In this document: piece after piece, positions 25,171 to 43,497 of the stretch
How the letters are laid out: every line of letters begins with the position of its first letter
How positions within the stretch are numbered: the first letter of the stretch is position 1
Assembly: GCA_964447465.1 (NCBI GenBank)
Contig: CAYUTR010000003.1
Coordinates: 1-50,735 of the forward strand
DNA: 50,735 bases
DNA from: an uncultured Chryseobacterium sp.
GTDB lineage: Bacteria > Bacteroidota > Bacteroidia > Palsa-965
Direction of reading: 5' to 3'
Program-made: the position numbers and the translations under genes
Notes under the pieces: model-generated
Database searches by the model: none
Told to the model about the DNA's origin: nothing
Seen by the model: only the letters and a program-made list of their open reading frames with translations

Positions 25171-25240
25171 ATCACCCCCGTATTTATACGGGGGTGATAA
25201 AGGGGGGTATTTATACTGGTTTTTACCCGTATTTATACGT
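25171..25240. promoter_or_regulatory. Three copies of the GTATTTATAC operator core
   Basis: Cores at 25180, 25207 and 25229; the first lies within a palindrome with 13-bp arms; same motif as at 37427 and 38109. Confidence 0.75.
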
Positions 25241-26712: not shown

Positions 26713-27531
26713 CTATCTGTGGCGAGACTTGCCCCTTGCTTTGCGCTTCGATTGCAGGCGATTGAGGGCTTTTTCAACATCAAAGTCCAACTGTACACCT
26801 AATGTTCCGAAGCGAAACTTTCTATTGTCTTGGACAACTCCATATAGCTTTCCTCCGCGCACATAAACCTCCAAGTTCTTTCTTTGGAGTTGAACGAGGA
26901 AGTCCTCTTGCGATCTCGCTTGCGCCTGACATTCGAGCACTGCTTCACGAACTTTCTCGTGAATCGATACTTTCTTCATTCGTTGTTTCATCTGCACTTC
27001 CTGGTCGTTCACGCGCAGTTTCGATTTTCTACCATGTGCAACCACAGACTTCGTGAGTTCTCTAAAATTCGTGATTTGGTGCTGTTGAACTTGCTTCTTA
27101 ATATCGCCGAACTCTCCGCGGCTCATGCGCATTGCTTTCCCGGTCGTATCGACGCCTGACACCAGAAGATGTACGTGGTAGTGTTCTTTATTGTAATGTG
27201 GTATCGCCAAAACTTTCGCACCGCGGACGCCAACGCGCAACCGGATATACTCTCTAGTCATCTGTTCCATCTTCTCGGCAGTGATGTGTCGCGCGTCATC
27301 TTTGTGCCAGGATAGAATCTCATGCGTCATGGTCACACTATCTTTTCTGCGGAGTACACGCCCTACCTCAAGCTCTTTGAGCTGATTCACCCAACTGTCA
27401 ATTTTGTTTCCTTTTAGATTATGCGCAACGACAAATCCCTCGCGACCGGACAGTCGATCGTTGTCGTGCAGCATGTATTCAATGAGCTGACGATAGGTTT
27501 TATTTTTCCTTGATTTTATCTTGACGATCAT
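26713..27531 (-). CDS. MOBP-type relaxase
   Basis: N-terminal LIEY; HEILSW; HUH motif HYNKEHYHVHLLVSG. Confidence 0.88.
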   Translation of the reverse strand: MIVKIKSRKNKTYRQLIEYMLHDNDRLSGREGFVVAHNLKGNKIDSWVNQLKELEVGRVLRRKDSVTMTHEILSWHKDDARHITAEKMEQMTREYIRLRVGVRGAKVLAIPHYNKEHYHVHLLVSGVDTTGKAMRMSRGEFGDIKKQVQQHQITNFRELTKSVVAHGRKSKLRVNDQEVQMKQRMKKVSIHEKVREAVLECQAQARSQEDFLVQLQRKNLEVYVRGGKLYGVVQDNRKFRFGTLGVQLDFDVEKALNRLQSKRKARGKSRHR

Positions 27532-28072
27532 GTGAGGTGATCAGTTGCAGCAAGTGAGCTTTAATATCAAGAGATTGGTTCAGTGCATCGCATAAAAGTT
27601 GTTCGAGTTTGGGTGGACTACTCAAATGTTCACGAACACTCGTTTCAAGCAGTATGATTCGTGCTTCAATGCTTTCGATCTTCTGATCTCGTTGCCAGAA
27701 GTATTTCTCACGAACTCCAGCGAGAGCCTGAATCTCATTGGCGCATTGAGCCAATAGCTGCTCCAGGTGAGCGAGAAACGCACGATCCGGCACGATATAC
27801 GTCTCAGTGAGATATGCCACAGCAGAGGCGCGTATAAACGCGGCCAGAGTCATTTTGTGTTTGCGTGCACCTGCAGCAATGCGCTCGTAGGTTCCATCTG
27901 CGCGAGAGAAGGCGACAATAACCTCTGGATTTTCTTTGAGCTGTTGTCGGCGATGGTTGTAATGGTAGGTCTTCCAATAACCGCGTTTCGCAGCGGCGAT
28001 CTCGTCAGGCGATCCTGTTTCCAGAATTCCCAACGCATCAAGATGCTTCCATAGACCACTACGCTTTCGCAT
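27500..28072 (-). CDS. Relaxosome accessory (MobC-like) protein
   Basis: RHH-like ARKHKMTLAAFIRASA and CANEIQALA; lies between the coupling protein and the relaxase. Confidence 0.5.
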   Translation of the reverse strand: MRKRSGLWKHLDALGILETGSPDEIAAAKRGYWKTYHYNHRRQQLKENPEVIVAFSRADGTYERIAAGARKHKMTLAAFIRASAVAYLTETYIVPDRAFLAHLEQLLAQCANEIQALAGVREKYFWQRDQKIESIEARIILLETSVREHLSSPPKLEQLLCDALNQSLDIKAHLLQLITSHDRQDKIKEK

Positions 28073-29519
28073 TAGATCGCTTTGATTGCGGTAATGGCAG
28101 GATTGGGACAACGCCGAATCCTGCACCGACCATTCGCGGAGGCGTGAGTTCACTGTGTGCGCGGAACGTCGAGTCCTTATAATAAGGACGAAGCTTCGCT
28201 TTGATCGGTGGATTGTGACCACAAATGATCAGCGCTTCGCTCGATGACATCGTACGGATTTCCGATGCGCTCATAAGGCTACGAGTAATAGTCTTGCCTT
28301 TCTCATCCTTGTAATCGAATTCACCCATCAGATCGGAGAGTTCTTTCGCCGTATCAAGTGGTTGTCCCGTGAAGTACATTTTCGCAAAGCAGTTAGCGCG
28401 GATGGCTTCTGCATCTTCGCGTCCATAAATGCTCACAAGTTGATTGTAGTCCTGCACAAGTAGCATAATTCCTGCGCGGCTCTTACGTACGTTCGCAATC
28501 GACAGTTGTAGATTTGGAAAATGTAACGAGGACGCTTCGTCGATCAGGAAGAATATATCGAGTTCGTTTTCTTTCGGTATTCGTGACAGGACATATCCGA
28601 AGAACTGTTCCAGGAAGAGCGAGGTAAGTATTGAGTAATACTTGACGTCACCTACTGACGTTTGCAGGAAGAGCGCTGTTGGACGTTTACGGAAGTTGTC
28701 GAAGGAAATGGAATCGACGCTCGTCACTTGCGCGACAGCGTTATCTCCAAGCAAAGTGAGAGAAGCAAGGCAGGTCGCGATAACACCGCTTCGTACCTTC
28801 TCGTCCAGGCCAACGAATGATTTGTAAGCAAGCCAGAGAGCAGGATCATTTTGTGCGTGCTTTGCATACAGCTGGTCCACGGCATCCGGATCGCCGCTCA
28901 TGCTATTAAGTAAGTAGCGCAGATTCGCAAGGTTGCGATAGGGTTCCGCTTCGAGATGCAGTGTCGCAATAAGCGCGGCAAGCAATGAACTCGCTTGGGA
29001 ATTCCAGAACGGGTCTTTTTTCCCTTTGCCGAGCGCGTTGTCAATAAGCATTGATGCGATCTTCTGCATTTCTGAAGATGTCTTTGCGCGTGCAACAGGA
29101 TTGTACCCGCAGGAGATTTCCGGCTTGGCGAAGTTGAGTACGCGCACGTCGTATCCACGGTCAACAAGCGACGCTGCGCTTTTCTCAAACAGTTCCCCCG
29201 ACGGATCATGCACAACAAAACTGCCTCGCATTTTGTAGAGCGACGGCAACAGCACGACGCTCGATTTGCCGACGCCAGTTCCACCGATGATGAGCGCATT
29301 GGAGTATGCATCTTTCGCACTGAGAGAACGCCTACCGGTCAAACAAAAACCCGCTGCATTCCTACTGAGTAATTCTCGTTCGCTGATAAAGTTTGAAGTA
29401 TGTGCGTGTTTGCGCTTGCCGACACCCGAGATGAATGTCTCAAGCGTTTCGCCGAGCAGCCCGAACAGGGATTCGAGCAGTGAGATTATAAGTTCAAGGA
29501 TTTTTTCGATTAGGATCAT
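28059..29519 (-). CDS. Type IV coupling protein (TraG/VirD4 family)
   Basis: GGTGVGKS, VVHDPSGEL, GYNP, DPFW, LIDEA, VQDYNQL..IYG. Confidence 0.92.
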   Translation of the reverse strand: MILIEKILELIISLLESLFGLLGETLETFISGVGKRKHAHTSNFISERELLSRNAAGFCLTGRRSLSAKDAYSNALIIGGTGVGKSSVVLLPSLYKMRGSFVVHDPSGELFEKSAASLVDRGYDVRVLNFAKPEISCGYNPVARAKTSSEMQKIASMLIDNALGKGKKDPFWNSQASSLLAALIATLHLEAEPYRNLANLRYLLNSMSGDPDAVDQLYAKHAQNDPALWLAYKSFVGLDEKVRSGVIATCLASLTLLGDNAVAQVTSVDSISFDNFRKRPTALFLQTSVGDVKYYSILTSLFLEQFFGYVLSRIPKENELDIFFLIDEASSLHFPNLQLSIANVRKSRAGIMLLVQDYNQLVSIYGREDAEAIRANCFAKMYFTGQPLDTAKELSDLMGEFDYKDEKGKTITRSLMSASEIRTMSSSEALIICGHNPPIKAKLRPYYKDSTFRAHSELTPPRMVGAGFGVVPILPLPQSKRSNAKA

Positions 29520-33615: not shown

Positions 33616-34539
33616 ATGAGCCTACTTGTAGTCGGAACCATGGCATTTGATGCCATTGAAACACCTTTCGGAAAGACAGATAAAATTATAGGCGGCGCCG
33701 CTACCTATATCGCACTGGCTGCTTCCTACTTTTTCAAGAACATCAATATCGTGTCGGTGGTTGGTGGCGACTTCCCGGAGGAGTCGATGGACATGCTCAA
33801 AAAGCACGGAGTGAAACTCGATGGTGTGCAGATCAAGAAGGATCAGAAATCATTTTTCTGGTCGGGACGTTATCATACGGACATGAATTCCCGTGATACA
33901 CTCGCAACAGAACTCAACGTACTTGCCGACTTCGATCCTATCGTTCCGGAGCATTGCAAAGAAGTTGATTTCCTGATGCTCGGAAATCTCATGCCGCAGG
34001 TTCAGCAAAAAGTAATTGCTCAACTAAACAAACGCCCGAAACTTATTGTGCTCGACACGATGAATTTCTGGATGGATACGGCGCATGATGAACTCGTGAA
34101 AACAATTTCACAGGTTGACGTGCTCACAATCAACGATGGCGAAGCACGCCAGCTCTCCGGAGAATATTCTCTCGTAAAAGCAGCTCAGAAAATTCTTTCG
34201 ATGGGTCCGAAAGTACTCATCATCAAAAAAGGCGAACACGGCGCATTGCTCTTCAACAAGGAACAGGTGTTCTTCGCTCCTGCCCTGCCATTGGAAGATG
34301 TGTTTGATCCAACCGGTGCGGGCGACAGTTTCGCTGGTGGATTCATCGGCTACCTCGCAGAAACAAAAGATATTTCTTTCGACAACATGAAGCGCGCCAT
34401 CATCTTCGGATCGGCAATGGCTTCGTTTACGGTTGAGAAATTCGGTGTAGAGCGTCTTGTTGGATTAACACAAGACCAGGTTGATGAACGAGTGCAGGAG
34501 TTTATTGACTTAGTTCAGTTTGATATTTCGTTGGTGTAA
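33616..34539 (+). CDS. PfkB-family carbohydrate kinase
   Basis: GGAATY, INDGEA, DPTGAGDSFAGG; TATATTTG promoter box near 33583. Confidence 0.93.
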   Translation: MSLLVVGTMAFDAIETPFGKTDKIIGGAATYIALAASYFFKNINIVSVVGGDFPEESMDMLKKHGVKLDGVQIKKDQKSFFWSGRYHTDMNSRDTLATELNVLADFDPIVPEHCKEVDFLMLGNLMPQVQQKVIAQLNKRPKLIVLDTMNFWMDTAHDELVKTISQVDVLTINDGEARQLSGEYSLVKAAQKILSMGPKVLIIKKGEHGALLFNKEQVFFAPALPLEDVFDPTGAGDSFAGGFIGYLAETKDISFDNMKRAIIFGSAMASFTVEKFGVERLVGLTQDQVDERVQEFIDLVQFDISLV

Positions 34540-34560
34540 ATTTTCGGCGGCCTGCGGCGC

Positions 34561-34729
34561 TAACCACATAGGGCCATAGAAACATAGACATTATTAAAAG
34601 CGTGATGCGCAACCGCATCCGACATAGAACACAATAGAGAGACGTAAACTCTATGTGCACTATGACGGACGCCTTAAGGCGTCGCGCTTAACAAGTTTAG
34701 AGCTATGAATCTATGATCCTATGTGGTTA
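34561..34729. repeat. Imperfect palindromic (REP/MITE-like) element between convergent genes
   Basis: Terminal inverted repeat TAACCACATAGG/CCTATGTGGTTA with internal CATAG/CTATG reiterations. Confidence 0.6.
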
Positions 34730-34739
34730 AAAAATCGGG

Positions 34740-35387
34740 CTACAGATACAGCCCATTCTTAATCGCATACATCACAATCCCCACCGTATTTTTTGCTTTT
34801 ATTTTCTGGAGAACACTTTCCCGATGGCCCTCCACTGTCCGCTGACTAAGATTCATCTTCTCTGCAATTTCCCTCGCACTTAGTTCCTGGCACAGCAACT
34901 GAATCACCTGCAATTCGCGCTCGGTAAGTCCGACCTTTTCAAAATTCGGTTTGATTTTTTTCCCCAGCATCAATCGTTGCACAAGCGCGTGCGATACACG
35001 TTCGTCGAGATAGTATCCCGTATCCATCACCGAGAAAATTGCATCAACCAACGTTTCTATCGGATCGTTCTTCACAAGAAAACCATGTGCCCCACTTTCA
35101 ATCATGTGCGCGATGATCGCTTCTTCATTGTGCATCGTGAGAATCAGCACGCGTATTCCGGGATGAGTTGCTTTAAGATACGCAAGCGTTTCTGTGCCGT
35201 CCATCTCCGGCATTTCAAGATCAAGCAGAACAACGTCCGGCTTCTTCTTCTTCAGTTTCTCCACCAATTCTTTCCCGTTACCCGCTTCGATCATCACGTT
35301 GAGCTCTTCGAATTCACTCAACAGGGAAATCAGTCCCGCACGGAACATAACCTGATCATCAACTACTGCGATGTTATATTTTACCAT
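34740..35387 (-). CDS. NarL/LuxR-family response regulator
   Basis: VVDD, LLDLEMP, LTM, FLVK receiver domain; LTERELQVI...RTVEGHR HTH. Confidence 0.96.
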   Translation of the reverse strand: MVKYNIAVVDDQVMFRAGLISLLSEFEELNVMIEAGNGKELVEKLKKKKPDVVLLDLEMPEMDGTETLAYLKATHPGIRVLILTMHNEEAIIAHMIESGAHGFLVKNDPIETLVDAIFSVMDTGYYLDERVSHALVQRLMLGKKIKPNFEKVGLTERELQVIQLLCQELSAREIAEKMNLSQRTVEGHRESVLQKIKAKNTVGIVMYAIKNGLYL

Positions 35388-36190
35388 ACTGCCGGTACTT
35401 CAATGATGACTTCTGAATCTGATTGTCCCTTACTCAGATATTGTATTGTGCCGTTTACGAGTTGTACCCGACTTTGGATACTCTTTAATCCAACTCCTTT
35501 TTGAGATTGTGCAAGTTCCGACGCGGCTTCATTCGTAATCCCAATTCCGTTGTGTCTGATCTGTACACCCAACGCTGTATCCGTCGCGCGTACCGCTATT
35601 CCAATCGCCGTGGCTTGAGAATGCTTGAGAATATTATTCACGATCTCACGTACTGCACGGTACAATTGAAGTTCTACTCGTGGCGCGAGCCGGCGATCGT
35701 TGGTTTCTATTACACAATCCATCTTCACTTGTCCCGATGCGTTGATCTGTCTGCACATTTCCGCCAGACCTTTATCAAGACCAAGCTTCACCAATGTAGG
35801 CGGCATCAGATCGTGTGCAATTCCGCGAACGGTCTGAATGCTTTCATCTACCATGCTCAGACTTTCCTTCACAAGCTCTTCTGTTTTTGCTTTGTCAGCC
35901 GCATTACGCGAGAGCTTCGTCATCTGCAGGCGGATTACATTCAGCAACGTTCCCACATCATCGTGAATATTCTTCGCAATTTTTTCACGCTCCTGTTCTG
36001 CAATTTCCAATGAAGCGTTAAGCATGTCTTTCTGGTGACGGTTTTCTGCGGCCTGTATGTGCATCTGTTGCGCCATTACTTTGCGCTGATATAATGCAAC
36101 GAAGAGCACGATGGACACAACGAGTATCAACATCGCACAGGTGCCAATGGCAACCAGAAGTCCTACTGGAATTGCTTCCTGGCTTTCCAT
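35381..36190 (-). CDS. HisKA_3-type histidine kinase with one TM helix and no sensor domain
   Basis: EREKIAKNIHDDVG, EIVNNILKH, HNGIG, GVGLKSIQSRV. Confidence 0.93.
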   Translation of the reverse strand: MESQEAIPVGLLVAIGTCAMLILVVSIVLFVALYQRKVMAQQMHIQAAENRHQKDMLNASLEIAEQEREKIAKNIHDDVGTLLNVIRLQMTKLSRNAADKAKTEELVKESLSMVDESIQTVRGIAHDLMPPTLVKLGLDKGLAEMCRQINASGQVKMDCVIETNDRRLAPRVELQLYRAVREIVNNILKHSQATAIGIAVRATDTALGVQIRHNGIGITNEAASELAQSQKGVGLKSIQSRVQLVNGTIQYLSKGQSDSEVIIEVPAVW

Positions 36191-36825
36191 AGTCCGATTC
36201 CGATTAATAAATTAAGTAGTATTACCAAAACCGAATGAACTCCCCACCAGAGGATTTCCATCAGATCCATTGAGTTTGTAATCAAATAATTGCTCGACAC
36301 AAAAATGAATATATCTCCACCGAAGTAAATCATGATGCCTGTGATGATCCAGAACTGAGGCGTTGCAGTAATGTTTGCATATACCATGTCTTTCATCATC
36401 GTATAAAGCATCACGATTGAGTAAAGCAGAAAAATAACCGCGGCGATACCGATTGAAAAGTTATCCATCTGCATCGCGCCCTGCAAAATAATATCAGTCA
36501 CAACCACGCCAATGAAAAGAACGTTCACGGCAATTATCGCTACCTGAATTTTCAGACGTCTGATTTCGCCCACAAAGAATGTGCTGATCAGTGTGAACTC
36601 TAGAATTGTGTACACCCTGGGAACATAGGCACTAAAGGCATGTGATTCACGATATAACTCTGTCAGTACATCTGCAGAAAATGCAACAACCGCCAATAGA
36701 ATCAAACATCGCAATCCGTAAGAACACTGCTTAAAACGCAATGCCCCGATCCCAACCGGAACCAACGAAGACCAAAATGCAACATCAATCAGTACTGTAA
36801 GTGTTTGTGCTGCTCCAGGAGACAT
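36163..36825 (-). CDS. Polytopic (~7 TM) membrane protein; putative receptor subunit
   Basis: Seven hydrophobic segments, YTILEF, FWIITGIMIYFGG; overlaps the kinase start. Confidence 0.8.
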   Translation of the reverse strand: MSPGAAQTLTVLIDVAFWSSLVPVGIGALRFKQCSYGLRCLILLAVVAFSADVLTELYRESHAFSAYVPRVYTILEFTLISTFFVGEIRRLKIQVAIIAVNVLFIGVVVTDIILQGAMQMDNFSIGIAAVIFLLYSIVMLYTMMKDMVYANITATPQFWIITGIMIYFGGDIFIFVSSNYLITNSMDLMEILWWGVHSVLVILLNLLIGIGLWKARKQFQ

Positions 36826-36948
36826 TCGTTGTTTGTTATAACCCGCCACGAAGATATGATTCATACGTTCCTGCATTTAACCGCTTACTACTTCTCCAAA
36901 AAAAGGACGTCCCATCAATTGCTTGACGGGACGTTTCCCCCCTTTTAA

Positions 36949-37266
36949 TTAGCCCGCAAGCGGGCTATCATCACCGTCGCACCATGGCGGGCAAGGTTTT
37001 ACTCTTTCCGCAACAATTCCACTAGTCATATCATTCTCATCCGCGCTTACACCTACGAATACTAATTCCTTGTTTCCGCTGTCGTCCAGCCCGTAATACA
37101 CTCTGAAACCTACACACCCTGTTTGACCAAGAATCGCGTTGATAATATTCTTTCCAATGAAGTGTGCTTTAGCGCCGGATGCGCCTTCGGAGTTTCTGTA
37201 GTTTGCAGTCATTGCTGCACCTTCTGCGAGTGTAATTACTTCTCCTTCTTTTCCGTCAAATGCCAT
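36949..37266 (-). CDS. Small PCPPxC protein, copy 1
   Basis: MAFDGKEGEV...GCVGFRVYY...ERVKPCPPWC; paralog at 37644. Confidence 0.88.
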   Translation of the reverse strand: MAFDGKEGEVITLAEGAAMTANYRNSEGASGAKAHFIGKNIINAILGQTGCVGFRVYYGLDDSGNKELVFVGVSADENDMTSGIVAERVKPCPPWCDGDDSPLAG

Positions 37267-37426
37267 AAGTTGTTTTGTTTAATTGTTGTACACTGATTGA
37301 GTTAGAGGGTCTGTTTCGTTTTTCTTAAAAATAGGTATTTCAAAAATTACCTTTTGAATGTTGCTACAAATGCCTTTTTCACACAAACTTTAGGATCAGA
37401 TGTTTAACACAAAAAGCGCGCTTTTT

Positions 37427-37469
37427 ACCCCCGTATTTATACGGGTAAAATCCCGTATAAATACGGGGG
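37427..37469. promoter_or_regulatory. 43-bp double-palindrome operator
   Basis: ACCCCCGTATTTATACGGGTAAAATCCCGTATAAATACGGGGG, identical to 38109-38151. Confidence 0.85.
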
Positions 37470-37490
37470 CGCAAAACACATATTTGCTCT

Positions 37491-37600
37491 TTTGTGCCAA
37501 CACATAACGCGAAGCTGCGGCTGAGTTCATCGTCCGAACGATTCCCGCAGGATTAATAATGGCAGAAGGACGGTAATACCGTCCTTCTGCTTTTCTCTTT
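37491..37600 (+). ncRNA. Candidate small RNA divergent from the operator
   Basis: CATATTTG box at 37479-37486, nested stems, and a perfect terminator stem (37562-37590) with a T-rich tail on the plus strand. Confidence 0.4.
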
Positions 37601-37643
37601 CCGGATTGGCTCTCCGGATGTTATGTCTATTAGCTGAAATTCC

Positions 37644-37973
37644 TCATATGTTTCTCCACGCGCCAGCTAAAACTCCGGTAGTCCCGCAATATGGTGGACA
37701 CGGACGGATGCGTTCAACTATCACTCCGTTTTCCAAGTCCTCCTCATCAGCATTGACACCCACCAGCACAAGACTCTTTTTTCCGTCTTCAATTGCATAA
37801 TAAATTCTGATCCCAACGCATCCGGTTTGATTCAGAATACTGTTGACTTTGTTTACACCAACTGTGTGAGCCCGTACTTCCTCTTCATCGGGGTTCTCTG
37901 TACTCCAGTTTATGAGCCATGATTCAGCGTCTTCTAGAGAAACTACTTCTCCTTCATTTCCATCAAATGCCAT
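37644..37973 (-). CDS. Small PCPPxC protein, copy 2
   Basis: MAFDGNEGEV...GCVGIRIYY...ERIRPCPPYC. Confidence 0.88.
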   Translation of the reverse strand: MAFDGNEGEVVSLEDAESWLINWSTENPDEEEVRAHTVGVNKVNSILNQTGCVGIRIYYAIEDGKKSLVLVGVNADEEDLENGVIVERIRPCPPYCGTTGVLAGAWRNI

Positions 37974-38108
37974 AATAGTTTTGTTTTAGGTGGTTAATAA
38001 ATGATTTGCTTGAAATGAAAGATAGTTCAATTCACCGATTACTGCAATGCAAAAAGGCTTTCGTACTTCAATTATTTTCAGACTGTTGTCGAAAAAAACA
38101 TACATAAC

Positions 38109-38172
38109 ACCCCCGTATTTATACGGGTAAAATCCCGTATAAATACGGGGGTGCAAAAAAGGGTATTAGTAC
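38109..38172. promoter_or_regulatory. Second copy of the 43-bp operator plus a degenerate third core
   Basis: Identical 43-mer at 38109-38151; GTATTAGTAC at 38163-38172. Confidence 0.85.
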
Positions 38173-38251
38173 TCTTGTAGCAACACACAATGCTAAAGTA
38201 CATTTGAATTCAAAGTTCAGATGTGATTACTTCGATAGACTCAGTACAGGC

Positions 38252-38446
38252 ATGGAGAGCAACGAGCATTTACGTGGACACCACATCAACATCAATAAAT
38301 CGCGCGAAGTGATGTACTGGTCCTATATGCTGGAGTGTGAGAAAGAAGATCTCATCAACGCGGTTGTCCGCATCGGCACCTGTGCAAAAATGGTAGATGA
38401 CTATCTCGTGATGAACCGCAGAAAAATTTCTTCGAATGGCCAATAG
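38252..38446 (+). CDS. DUF3606-like small protein
   Basis: ININKSREVMYWS..L......L.NAV.RIG; TACATTTG promoter box at 38199-38206. Confidence 0.65.
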   Translation: MESNEHLRGHHININKSREVMYWSYMLECEKEDLINAVVRIGTCAKMVDDYLVMNRRKISSNGQ

Positions 38447-38783
38447 AACTTCTGCCGGCGTTGCGTTCGACGATGATGTTGTTCAGAAAATATGGGAGAA
38501 GGCGCGACCGATTGCCGGACAAGATCCTGCACGCGTTCGTAAAGACATCTGCGGCGCCATCATTCATCGCGAAGATTTTAATCGCCAATCAAAAATACTT
38601 TCATTCGGTTGGGAAATCGATCACATCAAGCCGCTTTCAAAAGGCGGAACAGACGATTACTATAATCTGCAACCACTTCATTGGGAAAACAATCGCGGCA
38701 AAGGAGATGAACATCCTTCGTGGAATTGTTTGGTGCAGGGAGATGAAAAAGAGAATGGGTATGTGAGGGTGGTGAGCGGCTAA
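38436..38783 (+). CDS. HNH endonuclease
   Basis: KDICGA...GWEIDHIKPLSKGGTDDYYNLQPLHWENNRGKG. Confidence 0.9.
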   Translation: MANRTSAGVAFDDDVVQKIWEKARPIAGQDPARVRKDICGAIIHREDFNRQSKILSFGWEIDHIKPLSKGGTDDYYNLQPLHWENNRGKGDEHPSWNCLVQGDEKENGYVRVVSG

Positions 38784-39001
38784 TAGTCGAAATCAAAAAA
38801 ATCTTTCAGCGGAACATCCAAAGCTTTACTGAGTTTCAGAAAAGTTGATGCCGTAATATTTTCCGTTCCTCCTTCCAATCTTGCTAAAGCTGAACGCTCC
38901 ATGTTACAAAGATCTGCGAGGCTTTGTTGCGTCATCTCGCGCTCCTTTCTTAATGAGGCGATACGCTTTCCCAGTAACTGAAAAAATTTCTTTTCCTGCA
39001 T
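38780..39001 (-). CDS. XRE-family HTH regulator
   Basis: MTQQSLADLCNMERSALARLEGG; paralog of 14900-15121. Confidence 0.9.
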   Translation of the reverse strand: MQEKKFFQLLGKRIASLRKEREMTQQSLADLCNMERSALARLEGGTENITASTFLKLSKALDVPLKDFFDFDY

Positions 39002-39350
39002 CCTTGCATCCGATGGATGAGATCAAGGTGTGGGGTTTTAGAAAAAACATTGGTAACCCATAGGTTACAGTTGATAAAATTCAATAGATTGCATCGTAAA
39101 TGTGACCACTTGTGAAGTAATTGCTTGCGCCGGTGGTTTTCTCCTGGCTTTAACTAATCGAGGTTATACATTGCACTTATTCAGCCTTCATCCCACACTA
39201 GCGATCTGTGTAAAGAAGCGTATGCTCCAGTTGCTGAGTTTACAGCGGAAGAATAATGTGAGGAATCAAAAAGTGATTAGTTCTTTGAGCCGGCTTAGCG
39301 CACCACAACACTGTACATATTATCAAGTCATAACCCTAAACCACTCCATC

Positions 39351-42300
39351 ATGAAAAAACGAATCAGCAGAATTGGTAGTATAGCTCTACTTCTATTCGC
39401 CATTCTCTGTTACACACAACGCGTTCAGGCGCAAACCTGCGCGACGCCTTTGGCTCTAATGATTAACAACTGCGGTAGCTATTCCGTTAGCGATTCTATC
39501 GTTTGGCTATCGTTCAATTCCGGCAGCAGCAGCTCGTGGTGCAATATCAGTGTTACCGCAACGAGTGGCTCTGCCTCGATTACAGGAGCAGAACTATACA
39601 CCGGAACGTGTACTTCGCTGACACTGGTTCAATCAGGAAATAGTGATATAGAAGGATTCCTGATCAGATCAAGTGTTTCTGCATCGACGAATTATCTTTT
39701 AAAAGTGATACGATCAAATTCTGGCAGCGGTCAGGTTTATGTCTGTGCAAACGCAACCTCAACGTTGTTGCCATGTCCTCCATGCCCTGATTCATTATGT
39801 CAACTCGTTTGCAACCCGGATTTGGAATCATACCCTAACTCTACAACGGGTCAAGCCCCAGCCAATTTTGATTCGACTAATGTTTGCGGCGGCTGGAGAA
39901 CGCCGGGTGTTGGAACTCCAGATTATTTTAAATTCGGATTTCCCACAGTAGTTGACACAAGTAACTTTGCCGGTACAGAAGCGCCACATTCCGGAGACTC
40001 ATACGCTGGTATTTACTGCTACTACAACACCAACGCATTGTCTCGTGAATACATTCAACACCATCTGCAACAACCGCTCCTCGCAGGAGAATATTACACT
40101 TTAACTTTCTGGGTTAGTCTCGCGGATTGTTCCGGCTTTGCCGTTAATGATGTAGGTGCATATATTTCCAGCGTACGACCTAATCAGCAACCAAATCCTT
40201 CAGTTTTCAACTTGACGCCACAAGTTATTGCCAGCGCCACAATTTCAGATACCAGCGATTGGGTAATGATCAGCGGAACATTTCAAGCAGTTGGAGGAGA
40301 GCTATGGATAACAATAGGTTCCTTCGGCAATGCTCCTCAAGTGCAAACCGCAATGCCGGGACCTCTTCCGGCGCCACCGTTTCCATTTCCAACTGTCAAC
40401 ACGAATCCGAATGTGGGTGCATACTATTACATCGATGACGTAACGTTAGAATATTATCCCGATCCTACTTTCACATGGTCGGGCACATGCAGAATGTTTT
40501 TCGTTGATAGCACTGAATGTGTTGATACCAGCTATGTCCATCACTGGAATTTTGGTGATCCGGCTTCCGGGGCAAACGATAGTTCCGCGTTACAGAACCC
40601 AATGCATATTTTCACACAGACCGGTATTCCGTATGCGGTTACTCATACAATCACAAGTCCGAACGGTCCGGTATTTACTTATACGGCTACAGTCATTCAG
40701 CCCGGCGGTCCAACAGCAAACATAGTCGGTTATCAAACCAACAATTGCGGAAACGGGTTTATCACTTACACGGCAAGTCCATGTGTACCGGGAATTGTTT
40801 ACGACTGGTCGGCCTCAATTCCAACGGACAGTTTGAGTGATACCAAGGGATGCTCAACGAATGTACATTGGATTAGCGCAGGTGGCTATCTCTATCTCTC
40901 GGCATGGGATTCCATAAACGATTGTTATGGATTTGATACGTTATACATACCGGGTTGTTGCCAGTTGCAGACACTATACACGATCAGTAACACAAGCGCA
41001 TCGGCAGTATTGAGCAGCGCTGCGTTCTCTGCATGCATCACGGCTCCAAACACAATTGATGGTCCTTGCAGCGGAAATGACATCATGATCTCCGGTGTGT
41101 TCACGATTGATGTACCTCTTACATTCCTGAATTGTAATTACATCAGCCTGTCGCCAAACACAGTTATCATCGTAAATCCAGGTCAGACACTTACGTTAGA
41201 CAATTGTACGCTCTCAGTTAAATGCGACACGATGTGGGATGGGATTTACCTGACAAATGTGTTTTCGACTGTGAATATCATTAACACATCAGTCATTCAA
41301 CAGGCGAAGAATGCAGTAGTCTCGAACAGCGGTGGAAAATACTTTATTGAAAACTCCACATTCCAAAACTGTTATAGAGACATTGTCGTGAATGCCTACA
41401 GTGGCACTCATCCCGGCGTTGTGCGTTCCACTGATTTTGTAATGAATGGACCGCTCTGGCCTGCGATTCCAGCACTTCCATTCGCGCACAACAGAACAAT
41501 TTGCGCCATCGAGATCTACGACAACGTTGACATCACTATCGGCGATGCAACAACAGCTGCAAATCGCAACCGATTCAACAATGTTGCTGTCGGAGTGCGG
41601 TCCAATAACTCGATTACAAAGGTGATCAACGGACGCTTCACAAACATCATTGGTAATGTCATAATTCCCAATGCTGGAACAGGTGTTGTTGCAAACGGTC
41701 ATAAGAATGTAACGTATCAACCTGCCATTACAGTTGGTGGTGTTGGATTAAATAGCTGTGCGTTCACGACTATGCGTATCGCTGTCGATGTCTTCGACCT
41801 GGTGCACGTCAGTATTCTTAATAACAACATTTCGGAGATACGATTGTATGGTGTTCGTGTTCAACGAGCGAATTCGCGGAACATTGCTATTAATGACAAC
41901 GATATTGCGAACAATTCGGTGACGTATGGATTCAATACAGGGATTTTGCTACTTGAATGTTACGACGCGACAGTGAACATTAATCTGAATTCCATTTTGC
42001 AAACGGGGAATACCACGTCCAACTATGCTTCTCAGATTGGAACAGGTATTCGTGTTGCGTGTGTGTCTCCGGCTGATATGACAGTAAATATTCAGAGTAA
42101 CCAAACAATCAGCAGGGTTCGGACGGGTATCTGGGTGCAGAATCTCGTTGGCAAGAACAAAGTGTTCATTGGCGGTAATTCGATCGCCTTCACAAAACCA
42201 AACGGAGCTTACACAATTGCTCATTATGGAATTCGCTTGGAAGGTTGCGCAACTGTTCGATGTGATACCAACAATGTGAGCAAAGCTGCCACGACCGGTC

Positions 42301-43497
42301 TACCGACCGCAGGAATGGTTCAGCGACTGCGAGGGATCAGTATTGAGAACAGCCCGGTGACTTATGCAATTGATAATATTTTCACAAGGTTGGGCAGCGG
42401 CATTTTCGGGTGGGAAACTTCCTCGGGAAGTACACTTGCCTGCAACACAATGAACCGTTGTTATAACGGAGTGTTCTTTACTGGCGGTGCTGCAACGGGT
42501 TTTCAGTGTGACATCGGAGATCAAATTCTTGACCCAAACAATACTCCAGCATCGACGGGGAACGTTTGGAATAATACCGTTTCATTAATTAATGATTTAA
42601 ATGGTAATGTTTCGCCAACAATTAGCTGGCGCTATCATACAGTAACTCCACCAACTGCGGTGGGAACAAACGGTATTAATTTAGTCTTTGATTCATATAA
42701 TGCTTGCGGTATATTTTTCTTGTTACCTCAGCAAGTAGAGCGGGACAGGCAGGTTGGTGTTGCGTTACGATCTGCTTCTGATACGAACACAACTGCGGAG
42801 AACCGCCACTTGCTTCATCGTTATGCGCATCGTAAATTAACACAAACACCAGCGTGGTTAAGCCTCGGCTTCCCGGACGACACGCTGTACCAAAATTTCT
42901 TTAACAGCTATAATCCGACGAACGTGGGAACATTGCGCCAAATTGAAATTGCTGCCGACTCCGGCGGTTTTCAGTTTGTTGCTTCTGCGTGTAATTCACT
43001 TGCATGTTCTAACGTGCCAGAACATAACGTGAAAGTTGTTTATGGCATTTATGCAGCAACATGGATGCAGGGTATAGCAGAATTTACTTCGGCAGATTCC
43101 GCTACACTTCTGAACATTGCGCAGCAAGACCCTATAGAAGGTGGTACTGCAGTTTACAGCGCGCAGGTGATGCTCGATCTTGAAATAGACTATTACGGCG
43201 GCAGTTCACAACGCATAGGACAGGAAAATTCAAGTCATGCAACCCAAAGCGAGTTGAACGTCTACCCGAATCCTGCAAACGCATCGGTGAAACTGGAGTA
43301 CGGTGTTGACGAAGGACAAAGCGCACAGGTCGAGATTTACGATCTGGGTGGCAAACTCGTCCTCAGTCAGCAGCTTCCGCCGCAACAAGACGTTTACACG
43401 GTTGAAACGGCAGTTCTGACGGGTGGGTGTGTACATGATCCGTGTTGTGGTGGGTGATGAGGCGACCGAAAGTCAGCGCCTTGTGATCGTTAAATAA
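39351..43497 (+). CDS. Large secreted protein (PKD-like plus beta-helix repeats) with a T9SS domain; frameshifted near 43425
   Basis: Signal peptide MKKRIS; GTPDYF, SREY, WNFGDP; VYPNP; the canonical CTD ending GVYMIRV...QRLVIVK is in the +1 frame. Confidence 0.85.

Follow-up and report, generated by a model that had tools for sequence, protein, structure and literature searches.

Within a 50,735-nucleotide (nt) stretch of DNA from an uncultured Chryseobacterium sp. (assembly GCA_964447465.1, contig CAYUTR010000003.1; hereafter the window), we describe a minus-strand set of five genes lying within positions 34740-38172, which encodes two small proteins of a family that we call S (smallA and smallB), a seven-transmembrane (7-TM) protein, a HisKA_3 histidine kinase with a single transmembrane (TM) helix and a NarL-type response regulator (Table 1). 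We read this cassette as a self-regulated module of four parts, with S as the dedicated partner of a receptor made of the 7-TM protein and the one-TM kinase and with the CPxxC tail of S as its working end, and we give this reading a probability of about one half. It builds on gene order, domain content, synteny and palindromes that are conserved between genomes, and on the size and architectures of the S family, all of which were directly observed. A first-pass annotation, made from the window's letters alone, had proposed a quorum-sensing-like circuit in which the small proteins, or a disulfide-closed CPPxC peptide released from them, act as ligands for the receptor; the gene linkage and the repeated palindrome on which that proposal drew have stood, and no characterised family matches, whereas the released peptide and a specificity code based on a W/Y difference in the tail have not been supported.

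All five genes that had been listed as co-oriented were found, on the minus strand. By their coordinates, the 7-TM gene shares 28 nt with the kinase gene and the latter 7 nt with the regulator gene, and 72 nt separate smallB from the 7-TM gene; the earlier description of a 7-TM protein overlapping a one-TM HisKA_3 kinase without an input domain is accurate. The small proteins had been described as paralogs of about 105 amino acids (aa) without signal peptides and with a conserved PCPP(W/Y)C, and this too is borne out: at 105 and 109 aa, they are 48% identical (51/106, E 1e-36) and have the motifs GCVG(F/I)R(V/I)YY, LV(F/L)VGV and ER(V/I)(K/R)PCPP(W/Y)C in common. Their reading frames close four codons upstream, giving open frames of 109 and 113 aa, so that an N-terminal signal peptide cannot be added to either of them.

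In other genomes, the same genes recur in the same order. Among 80 loci, taken as the best of 313 confirmed S relatives from a scan of species-representative genomes, a profile-confirmed 7-TM-family gene immediately follows S in 76, and a crude hydropathy count places an open reading frame (ORF) with at least four TM segments directly after S on the same strand in 72. Kinase and regulator then follow on the same strand in 64 loci, as counted by reading, and are found by phmmer anywhere in the locus in 65 and 69 loci, respectively; several of the exceptions are apparently truncated where the contig stops. Of 39 fully scored loci, 37 have a kinase ORF that overlaps the 7-TM ORF at its end, most commonly by 21 nt (16 loci), and the recurrence of this overlap suggests translational coupling. 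In other genomes, the S gene itself commonly lies against the 7-TM gene or overlaps it, the distance being within about 10 nt. The syntenic loci come from records labelled Flavobacteriales, Crocinitomicaceae, Cytophagia, Chitinophaga, Pontibacter, Ignavibacteria, Calditrichota and Marinimicrobia, and the linkage of S to a 7-TM gene, a sensor-less kinase and a NarL regulator, as annotated at first for the window, therefore holds in many genomes; a check for homologues of S lacking this linkage does not refute it. Beyond the four genes, no neighbour recurs, the next most frequent being a gene for a small HNH protein upstream of S in 8 of the 80 loci, and no protease, maturase, exporter or transporter gene is conserved nearby.

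The pairing of S with the 7-TM protein extends to loci with other outputs and to loci that the S profile misses. In two loci (L037 and L079), the pair stands with a one-TM PAS-HisKA-HATPase-receiver hybrid kinase, and in four others (L038, L059, L066 and L068) with a receiver-less GerE (LuxR-type) protein, which in L059 and L066 is encoded on the opposite strand upstream of S and has an N-terminal part that looks hydrophobic by eye. Across an even sample of 401 Bacteroidota genomes, 46 of the 50 S-positive ones carry the 7-TM family. A further sample comprised ten strong 7-TM/kinase/regulator cassettes whose genome or site gave no strong S match (L115-L124; genomes G135, G155, G371, G017, G043, G315, G259, G323 and G287). 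Nine of them have an upstream ORF of 121-253 aa, sometimes a lipoprotein; six of these nine ORFs end in C-x3-C (five in C-P-x-x-C, and L115 with an overlapping CPPIC), and two further ones keep a Cys adjoining PP. These S-like ORFs imply that the S superfamily is larger than the 2858 clusters found by profile search (see below), and that a CPxxC-tailed ORF and a 7-TM gene form a persistent unit in which the tail outlasts most other S sequence. Some loci depart from the standard layout: in L016, S is followed by four multi-TM ORFs in a row, all unmatched by the 7-TM profile, with kinase and regulator not in the locus, and two 7-TM-family copies follow one S in L038 and L100, and three in G335 (C1:2383422-2386104).

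Upstream of each S gene in the window lies the same stretch of 43 nt, as had been noted, in two copies that are identical to one another. Each copy is a perfect inverted repeat of 18-20 nt with a 6-nt spacer, and may alternatively be parsed as two 7-2-7 palindromes, CCCGTAT-WW-ATACGGG, with centres 22 bp apart, a spacing that would be expected for two GerE-type dimers bound on one helix face. When one mismatch is tolerated, the 14-nt operator core has 13 occurrences per strand in the 5.08-Mb genome and a reversed control has 0, so its recurrence exceeds chance. The arrangement is also conserved in relatives: of 79 loci, 43 have an NNNGTA-N4-TACNNN palindrome in the 300 nt preceding S, and 14 have at least two copies, compared with 1.5 loci expected from shuffling and with 57 of 3294 (1.7%) other 300-nt windows from the same loci. 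These sites concentrate at -100 to -275 from the ORF start, and their flanks vary by lineage (TACGTA..., CAAGTA..., TTAGTA..., ACCGTA...), the pattern expected from a co-evolving regulator/operator pair, if the regulator does bind there. The feedback on the S promoters suggested at first is consistent with this conservation.

In this clade, the S genes may form separate high-output transcription units, with read-through into the receptor genes, as hairpins lie downstream of smallA and between smallB and the 7-TM gene. A near-consensus TTTG...TAnnTTTG, a candidate promoter of the Bacteroidota type, was seen by eye upstream of smallB; sigma-70 promoter scans are not applicable to the promoters of this phylum. 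An Rfam search over 34500-38500 returned just hairpin look-alikes far below threshold.

S is a large family. Counted as representative clusters at 50% identity, a full profile search returned 2858 clusters at E<=0.001 and 1338 at E<=1e-10, while a word-indexed search found only 20 relatives. In the 401 sampled genomes, S is present at E<=1e-5 in the 50 mentioned above (34 of 180 genera), and it is absent from all 87 genomes of one well-sampled Bacteroidota family. Neither Pfam, NCBIfam nor PADLOC has a match for S, two Pfam rows (E 0.036 and 0.049) being well under cut-offs; a sequence search of solved structures gave best E values of 0.43 and 0.9, and all S clusters in the ESM Atlas are labelled 'hypothetical'. 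A keyword search of the literature, excluding supplementary tables, yielded no description of the cassette or of the CPxxC motif in bacterial signalling. The first-pass annotation knew of no characterised Bacteroidota system of this kind, and no characterised family matched S or the 7-TM protein in the searches of Pfam, NCBIfam, PDB and the ESM Atlas.

An AlphaFold2 model of S (79-sequence alignment, mean predicted local distance difference test score (pLDDT) 83.4) contains two helices, a long beta-hairpin and short strands. Foldseek returned nothing in the PDB at E<=0.001 for this model, and the top-scoring of 48,161 chains compared by VIA-align, CopG (6wis_A), reached a Z of 3.7 (root-mean-square deviation 4.0 over 51 residues), under the usual noise level; likenesses in fold to CopG, the CzcD C-terminal domain and UipA were set aside as too weak for use. 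Conserved positions (M1, G5, E7, T20, R24, Q48, G53, R55, Y57, G72, D79, C92, P93, C96 and L103) are spread over residues 1-103, which, together with the pLDDT of the model, suggests that S is a compact folded domain of about 100 aa from a new family and not a leader with a core peptide. For a long-leader precursor of a ribosomally synthesised and post-translationally modified peptide (NHLP or Nif11 type), we found no Pfam or NCBIfam match in S and no conserved maturase or transporter neighbour. A copper site of the TRASH/YHS-like or Sco-like kind, considered in view of the Cys...CPxxC pattern, was rejected, having no Pfam support and a different spacing.

The C-P-x-x-C tail is the most persistent feature of the family. 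Among the best 150 S representatives, comprising 72 single-domain and 78 tandem two-domain proteins, CX3C is present in 70 of the 72 single-domain forms; in the tandem forms, it is found in the last domain of 67 (26 + 41) and in the first domain of 33 (26 + 7), the motif of the first domain being internal in the 26 that have both. It usually lies 7-10 residues from the C-terminus, with exactly 8 residues after the last Cys in 44 of 137 cases. The residue that differs between smallA and smallB falls on an unconserved 'x' of CPxxC and varies freely across the family, which disposes of the idea that W and Y mark two signal specificities. Release of a disulfide-closed CPPxC peptide is likewise disfavoured, by the full-length conservation of S, its compact domain, the lack of a conserved processing or export gene and the internal first motif of those 26 tandem relatives. 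It is further countered by the chemistry of synthetic peptides, since oxidised CPXXC peptides prefer motif-to-motif pairing into parallel or antiparallel double-disulfide dimers (PMC11379947). Taken with the tandem fusions (78 of 150), this chemistry suggests that the functional unit is an S dimer with cross-linkable tails, which would make a thiol switch likelier than a released cyclic pentapeptide.

By reading, the 7-TM protein has seven hydrophobic segments (a crude hydropathy count gives 6), and the positive-inside rule suggests an N-out/C-in topology with loops that are all under about 14 residues. Pfam gave no match for it at E<=1 and none for 40 family members at E<=0.1; NCBIfam and PADLOC also returned none, and a search of solved structures with the 7-TM profile found nothing. 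Automatic names on the nearest ESM Atlas clusters would make it a YhhN protein or lysoplasmalogenase, an identity that we rejected, with 0 of 40 members matching Pfam YhhN (E<=0.1), and a DsbD/CcdA-like redox relay was discarded because the protein has no conserved Cys. No form in which the 7-TM protein and kinase are fused turned up among 2246 candidates, which is weak evidence against such fusions, and the two are always separate ORFs in the loci examined.

The kinase consists of about 8 residues, one hydrophobic helix and then the catalytic core, with HisKA_3 (PF07730, E 3.9e-10) and HATPase_c (PF02518, E 4.6e-13) and no other domain, and its H76 is invariant in 39 aligned sequences. Its best NCBIfam rows include LiaS and UhpB, far below cut-offs. 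The regulator, with Response_reg (PF00072, E 1.4e-26) and GerE (PF00196, E 3.2e-16), is of the NarL/LuxR type, as annotated; the NCBIfam rows NarL, NarP and UvrY are all under their equivalog cut-offs, so it is a member of the family and not an ortholog of a named regulator. The top NCBIfam rows MctS/MctR, also far below cut-off, belong to a setting of rhizobial monocarboxylate transport (PMC9100948).

With respect to divergence, mean identity to the window proteins over 37 loci is 52% for S, 45% for the regulator, 37% for the kinase and 27.5% for the 7-TM protein, and S thus appears highly constrained over long distances. Towards the closest relative, L003, the order is another one: 81% for the kinase, 76% for the regulator, 63% for S and 38% for the 7-TM protein. 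A faster divergence of S and the 7-TM protein than of kinase and regulator in close relatives, of which there are one to three, is suggestive of specificity divergence. Of the two S copies in the window, smallB is the ortholog of the S gene found ahead of the 7-TM gene elsewhere, and smallA, whose best relative in the collected sets is 57% identical, is an old paralog and not a recent duplicate. A second S copy occurs in 1 of the 80 other loci.

Putting these observations together, we propose that the translationally coupled 7-TM protein and one-TM kinase form a membrane receptor, and that the kinase would phosphorylate the NarL-type regulator. The regulator, in turn, would control S by binding to the tandem 7-2-7 palindromes that precede each S gene, and the receptor genes would be controlled through read-through from S transcription. 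S would serve as the input module of the 7-TM/kinase receptor, in place of a short-peptide precursor, and the signal would be set by the thiol state of its tail, which may be reduced, metal-bound or paired by disulfides in S-S dimers. Three steps of this scheme are postulated, namely binding of the regulator to the palindromes, contact of S with the 7-TM protein or kinase, and any redox or metal role of the tail. A complex prediction for S, the 7-TM protein and kinase residues 1-140 scored 0.00 in two runs in which controls also came out unfolded, and speaks neither for nor against the contact.

Several observations sit uneasily with S as a receptor subunit. Most single-domain S proteins are leaderless (59 of 72, with 10 carrying a signal peptide or anchor and 3 an N-terminal extension without a TM segment), and so are 48 of the 78 tandem proteins (14 with a signal peptide or anchor, 16 with a lipobox), yet 40 of the 150 representatives have a signal peptide, anchor or lipobox. 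In loci gathered by single-protein queries, the exported forms keep the 7-TM protein and one-TM kinase (signal peptide or anchor, L092-L104; lipoprotein, L112-L114; tandem, L091 and L098). The first loop of their 7-TM partners is positively charged in the same way, by reading, and in L102 a leaderless and a signal-bearing S flank one 7-TM gene. Docking of S at one side of the 7-TM protein does not account for both classes, and the choice is then between an exit of leaderless S from the cytoplasm by some further route and a mode of action that needs no fixed site of contact. The acidic residues that follow the lipobox Cys in many S lipoproteins resemble the Bacteroidota surface-export signal.

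Other points count against the proposal as well. The 7-TM protein has no conserved His or Cys that would hint at a metal or redox relay, and its family is wider than the S profile (84 vs 50 of the 401 genomes), often with more copies. The operator palindrome occurs at no fewer than five other places in the genome, near unrelated genes, and the genome encodes five other HisKA_3/NarL pairs, 27-37% identical, and a sixth NarL-type regulator without a matching kinase, which leaves the cassette regulator as only a putative binder of the palindromes. Finally, the hairpins between S and the receptor genes suggest that S is made in large excess, as would befit a signal or an effector more than a subunit present in stoichiometric amounts.

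An effector role of this kind is the core of an alternative that we regard as possible, if on the improbable side, in which the 7-TM protein and kinase sense membrane or envelope perturbation, or a membrane-permeant compound, and S is merely induced by them as a thiol- or metal-based buffer or protectant without a direct sensing role. Bacillus liaIH-liaGFSR combines regulator-dependent target genes with an accessory membrane protein, a HisKA_3 kinase without a sensor domain and a NarL regulator, and the gene layout of the cassette matches it. The LiaS and UhpB rows of the kinase agree with such a stress module, as do the separate high-output S units and the two divergent S copies per receptor, and a mixture of cytoplasmic and exported S is easier to accommodate in a buffer or protectant than in a receptor ligand. 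The pairing of S with the 7-TM protein, however, survives a change of output to a hybrid PAS kinase or to receiver-less GerE proteins and outlasts divergence down to the tail and a few core residues, which exceeds what would be expected of a mere regulon member; elsewhere, S is often joined directly to the 7-TM gene, and by Pfam the latter encodes no LiaF-family protein.

We consider it unlikely that S, or a fragment with the CPxxC tail, leaves the cell and is sensed by the 7-TM protein and kinase in an autoinducing, quorum-sensing-like loop. Autoinduction logic is discernible in that the S gene is the sole conserved local target of the putative operator and only four genes recur; S in this clade has its own operator and a terminator-like hairpin, like an abundant precursor, and the receptor loops are all short, as in AgrC-type peptide sensors. 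Sec or lipoprotein signals are present in roughly one in four of the best 150 relatives, so that the S domain can act outside the cytoplasm, and the divergence of S (63%) and the 7-TM protein (38%) beyond that of kinase and regulator towards L003 resembles specificity divergence in agr, with one to three close relatives behind it. Against a secreted signal, the S proteins of the window and most single-domain relatives lack an export signal and their frames are not extendable, peptidase, maturase and transporter genes are not conserved nearby, and the 7-TM protein has neither a Pfam peptidase match (0 of 40) nor a conserved His or Cys. Unlike pheromone precursors, S is folded, conserved over its full length and the slowest-evolving component over long distances; lipoprotein and anchored forms would stay attached to the membrane and not diffuse, and in tandem fusions one tail is buried. 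A broader version would have environmental Bacteroidota and some neighbouring phyla share a widespread, undescribed form of protein-based signalling between cells or at the cell envelope. This version, with S as a ligand that the cell makes for its own split 7-TM/kinase receptor, with the oxidised, CPxxC-paired dimer as the active form, leaderless S exported by a further route and the fast-diverging S/7-TM pair defining specificity groups, appears equally doubtful to us.

That the five genes are functionally unlinked neighbours, and the palindromes repeat elements or terminators, is highly improbable. The palindrome does occur elsewhere in the genome, partly near mobile-element genes, and a consensus scan scores it as a terminator-like hairpin. 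Chance proximity is contradicted by synteny that is kept in 64-76 of the 80 loci across many labelled groups, and by the GTA-N4-TAC palindromes of 43 of 79 loci, which have differing flanks but keep their distance to the S gene that they precede; the other genomic sites share only 16-nt units of the operator, not its flanks, and no co-directional gene ends just upstream of the smallA operator copy.

The CCGTATWWATACGG palindrome is found in arrays of two or three at five places outside the cassette, beside a DUF4325-PIN pair, a lipoprotein and DUF4747, a relaxase, an unannotated 336-aa protein and a DUF3467 gene divergent from Fic; these arrays may represent a wider regulon or the sites of another regulator. 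A mobilisable element about 5 kb from the cassette in the window is marked by genes for a relaxase of the MobA/VirD2 type (26713-27531) and for a type IV coupling protein (28059-29519); a second relaxase-like gene, with a palindrome beside it, is on contig C27. Upstream of smallA are a DUF3606 gene (38204-38446) and a small HNH endonuclease gene (38436-38783), homologous to the one that recurs upstream of S elsewhere, followed on the same side by a convergent XRE-type helix-turn-helix gene (38780-39001), and a 1451-aa ORF on the plus strand (39102-43457) adjoins the cassette. At the other end, the gap between a PfkB kinase gene and the end of the regulator gene holds an imperfect inverted repeat (34561-34587 / 34703-34729) with 27-nt arms that are 85% complementary and 115 nt apart.

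Table 1 Features of the S/7-TM cassette and related sites (positions in the window unless a contig is named)
Feature	Position	Strand	Description
smallA	37644-37973	-	109 aa; leaderless S-family member with PCPPYC tail; family profile E 4.3e-40
smallB	36949-37266	-	105 aa; leaderless S-family member with PCPPWC tail; family profile E 1.1e-48
7-TM membrane protein	36163-36876	-	237 aa; unannotated family
HisKA_3 histidine kinase	35381-36190	-	269 aa; one N-terminal TM helix
NarL-type response regulator	34740-35387	-	215 aa; receiver and GerE helix-turn-helix
Putative operator copy upstream of smallA	38109-38151	.	43 nt; 136-178 nt 5' of ATG
Putative operator copy upstream of smallB	37427-37469	.	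43 nt; 161-203 nt 5' of ATG
Two 7-2-7 palindromes of the smallA operator copy			CCCGTATTTATACGGG / CCCGTATAAATACGGG
CCGTATWWATACGG arrays outside the cassette	window 25178-25240; G000 C27:6759-6794; C27:12551-12590; C49:14340-14430; C302:4422-4483		
Hairpin downstream of smallA	37562-37590	-	13-14 bp stem; z -5.7; likely terminator or RNA-stabilising stem
Intrinsic-terminator-like hairpin between smallB and the 7-TM gene	36898-36934	-	12 bp stem and T7 run; z -5.5
Terminator-like hairpin at the regulator gene end	34736-34755	-	hairpin with T-run

We compared the cassette with known systems. LiaFSR is similar in its HisKA_3 kinase without an extracytoplasmic sensor, in the accessory membrane protein encoded just before it and in the NarL-type regulator, and also in having small, strongly regulated upstream genes with an inverted-repeat site and, in LiaX, a secreted or auxiliary feedback protein. 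It differs in that the 7-TM protein has no LiaF/PspC-type match, S is unrelated by Pfam to LiaI, LiaH (PspA) and LiaX, and the cassette kinase has one TM helix and no HAMP match; moreover, the cassette belongs to another phylum. With agr and ComQXPA, the cassette shares a small product, a short-loop polytopic protein, a kinase and a regulator encoded together, and it would share their self-regulation, the putative conserved local target being the cassette itself. S, however, is a folded domain of 105 aa compared with precursors of about 46 aa (AgrD) and 55 aa (ComX), most S proteins are without any export route, and the cassette has neither an AgrB-type peptidase nor a ComQ prenyltransferase; its kinase is of the HisKA_3 kind and leaves the polytopic part to a gene of its own, and its regulator is GerE-type instead of LytTR as in agr.

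A further parallel is provided by CpxP-CpxA, NlpE-CpxA and RcsF-IgaA-RcsCDB, where a membrane kinase is modulated, directly or via a polytopic inner-membrane protein, by a small protein or lipoprotein that often contains Cys. CpxP is the most induced target of its own pathway and so gives feedback, RcsB is of the NarL/GerE type, and a lipoprotein S with its 7-TM protein and kinase mirrors RcsF-IgaA. For S, no relation in sequence or fold to these proteins was found, most S proteins are leaderless, including both copies in the window, and, unlike RcsF and IgaA, S and its 7-TM partner are an adjacent gene pair across phyla. UhpABC likewise has a HisKA_3 kinase that relies on a separate polytopic sensor (UhpC) and a NarL-type regulator, yet UhpC is a 12-TM protein of the major facilitator superfamily type, UhpB has a multi-TM domain of its own and there is no small S-like partner. 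By analogy, then, the cassette would work like the accessory-protein-assisted two-component systems, yet it is a member of none of LiaFSR, Cpx, Rcs, UhpABC, agr and ComQXPA.

Judged from sequence, S and the 7-TM protein are two new, large families that form an obligate gene pair feeding two-component or LuxR-type outputs, and their recurrence in environmental Bacteroidota points to a new self-regulated signalling module. To our knowledge, signal input to Bacteroidota two-component systems is poorly understood outside the gut polysaccharide sensors, and we know of no protein- or peptide-type autoinduction circuit in this phylum. A portable input module of a small protein and a 7-TM protein would offer a new, testable entry point to Bacteroidota signalling, and culturable carriers exist, with loci from several Pontibacter-labelled records and from a single one labelled Flavobacterium. 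Should S turn out to be a signal, the cassette would be the first protein- or peptide-type autoinduction circuit that we know of in the phylum; as a thiol or metal switch, S would represent a new kind of co-sensor.

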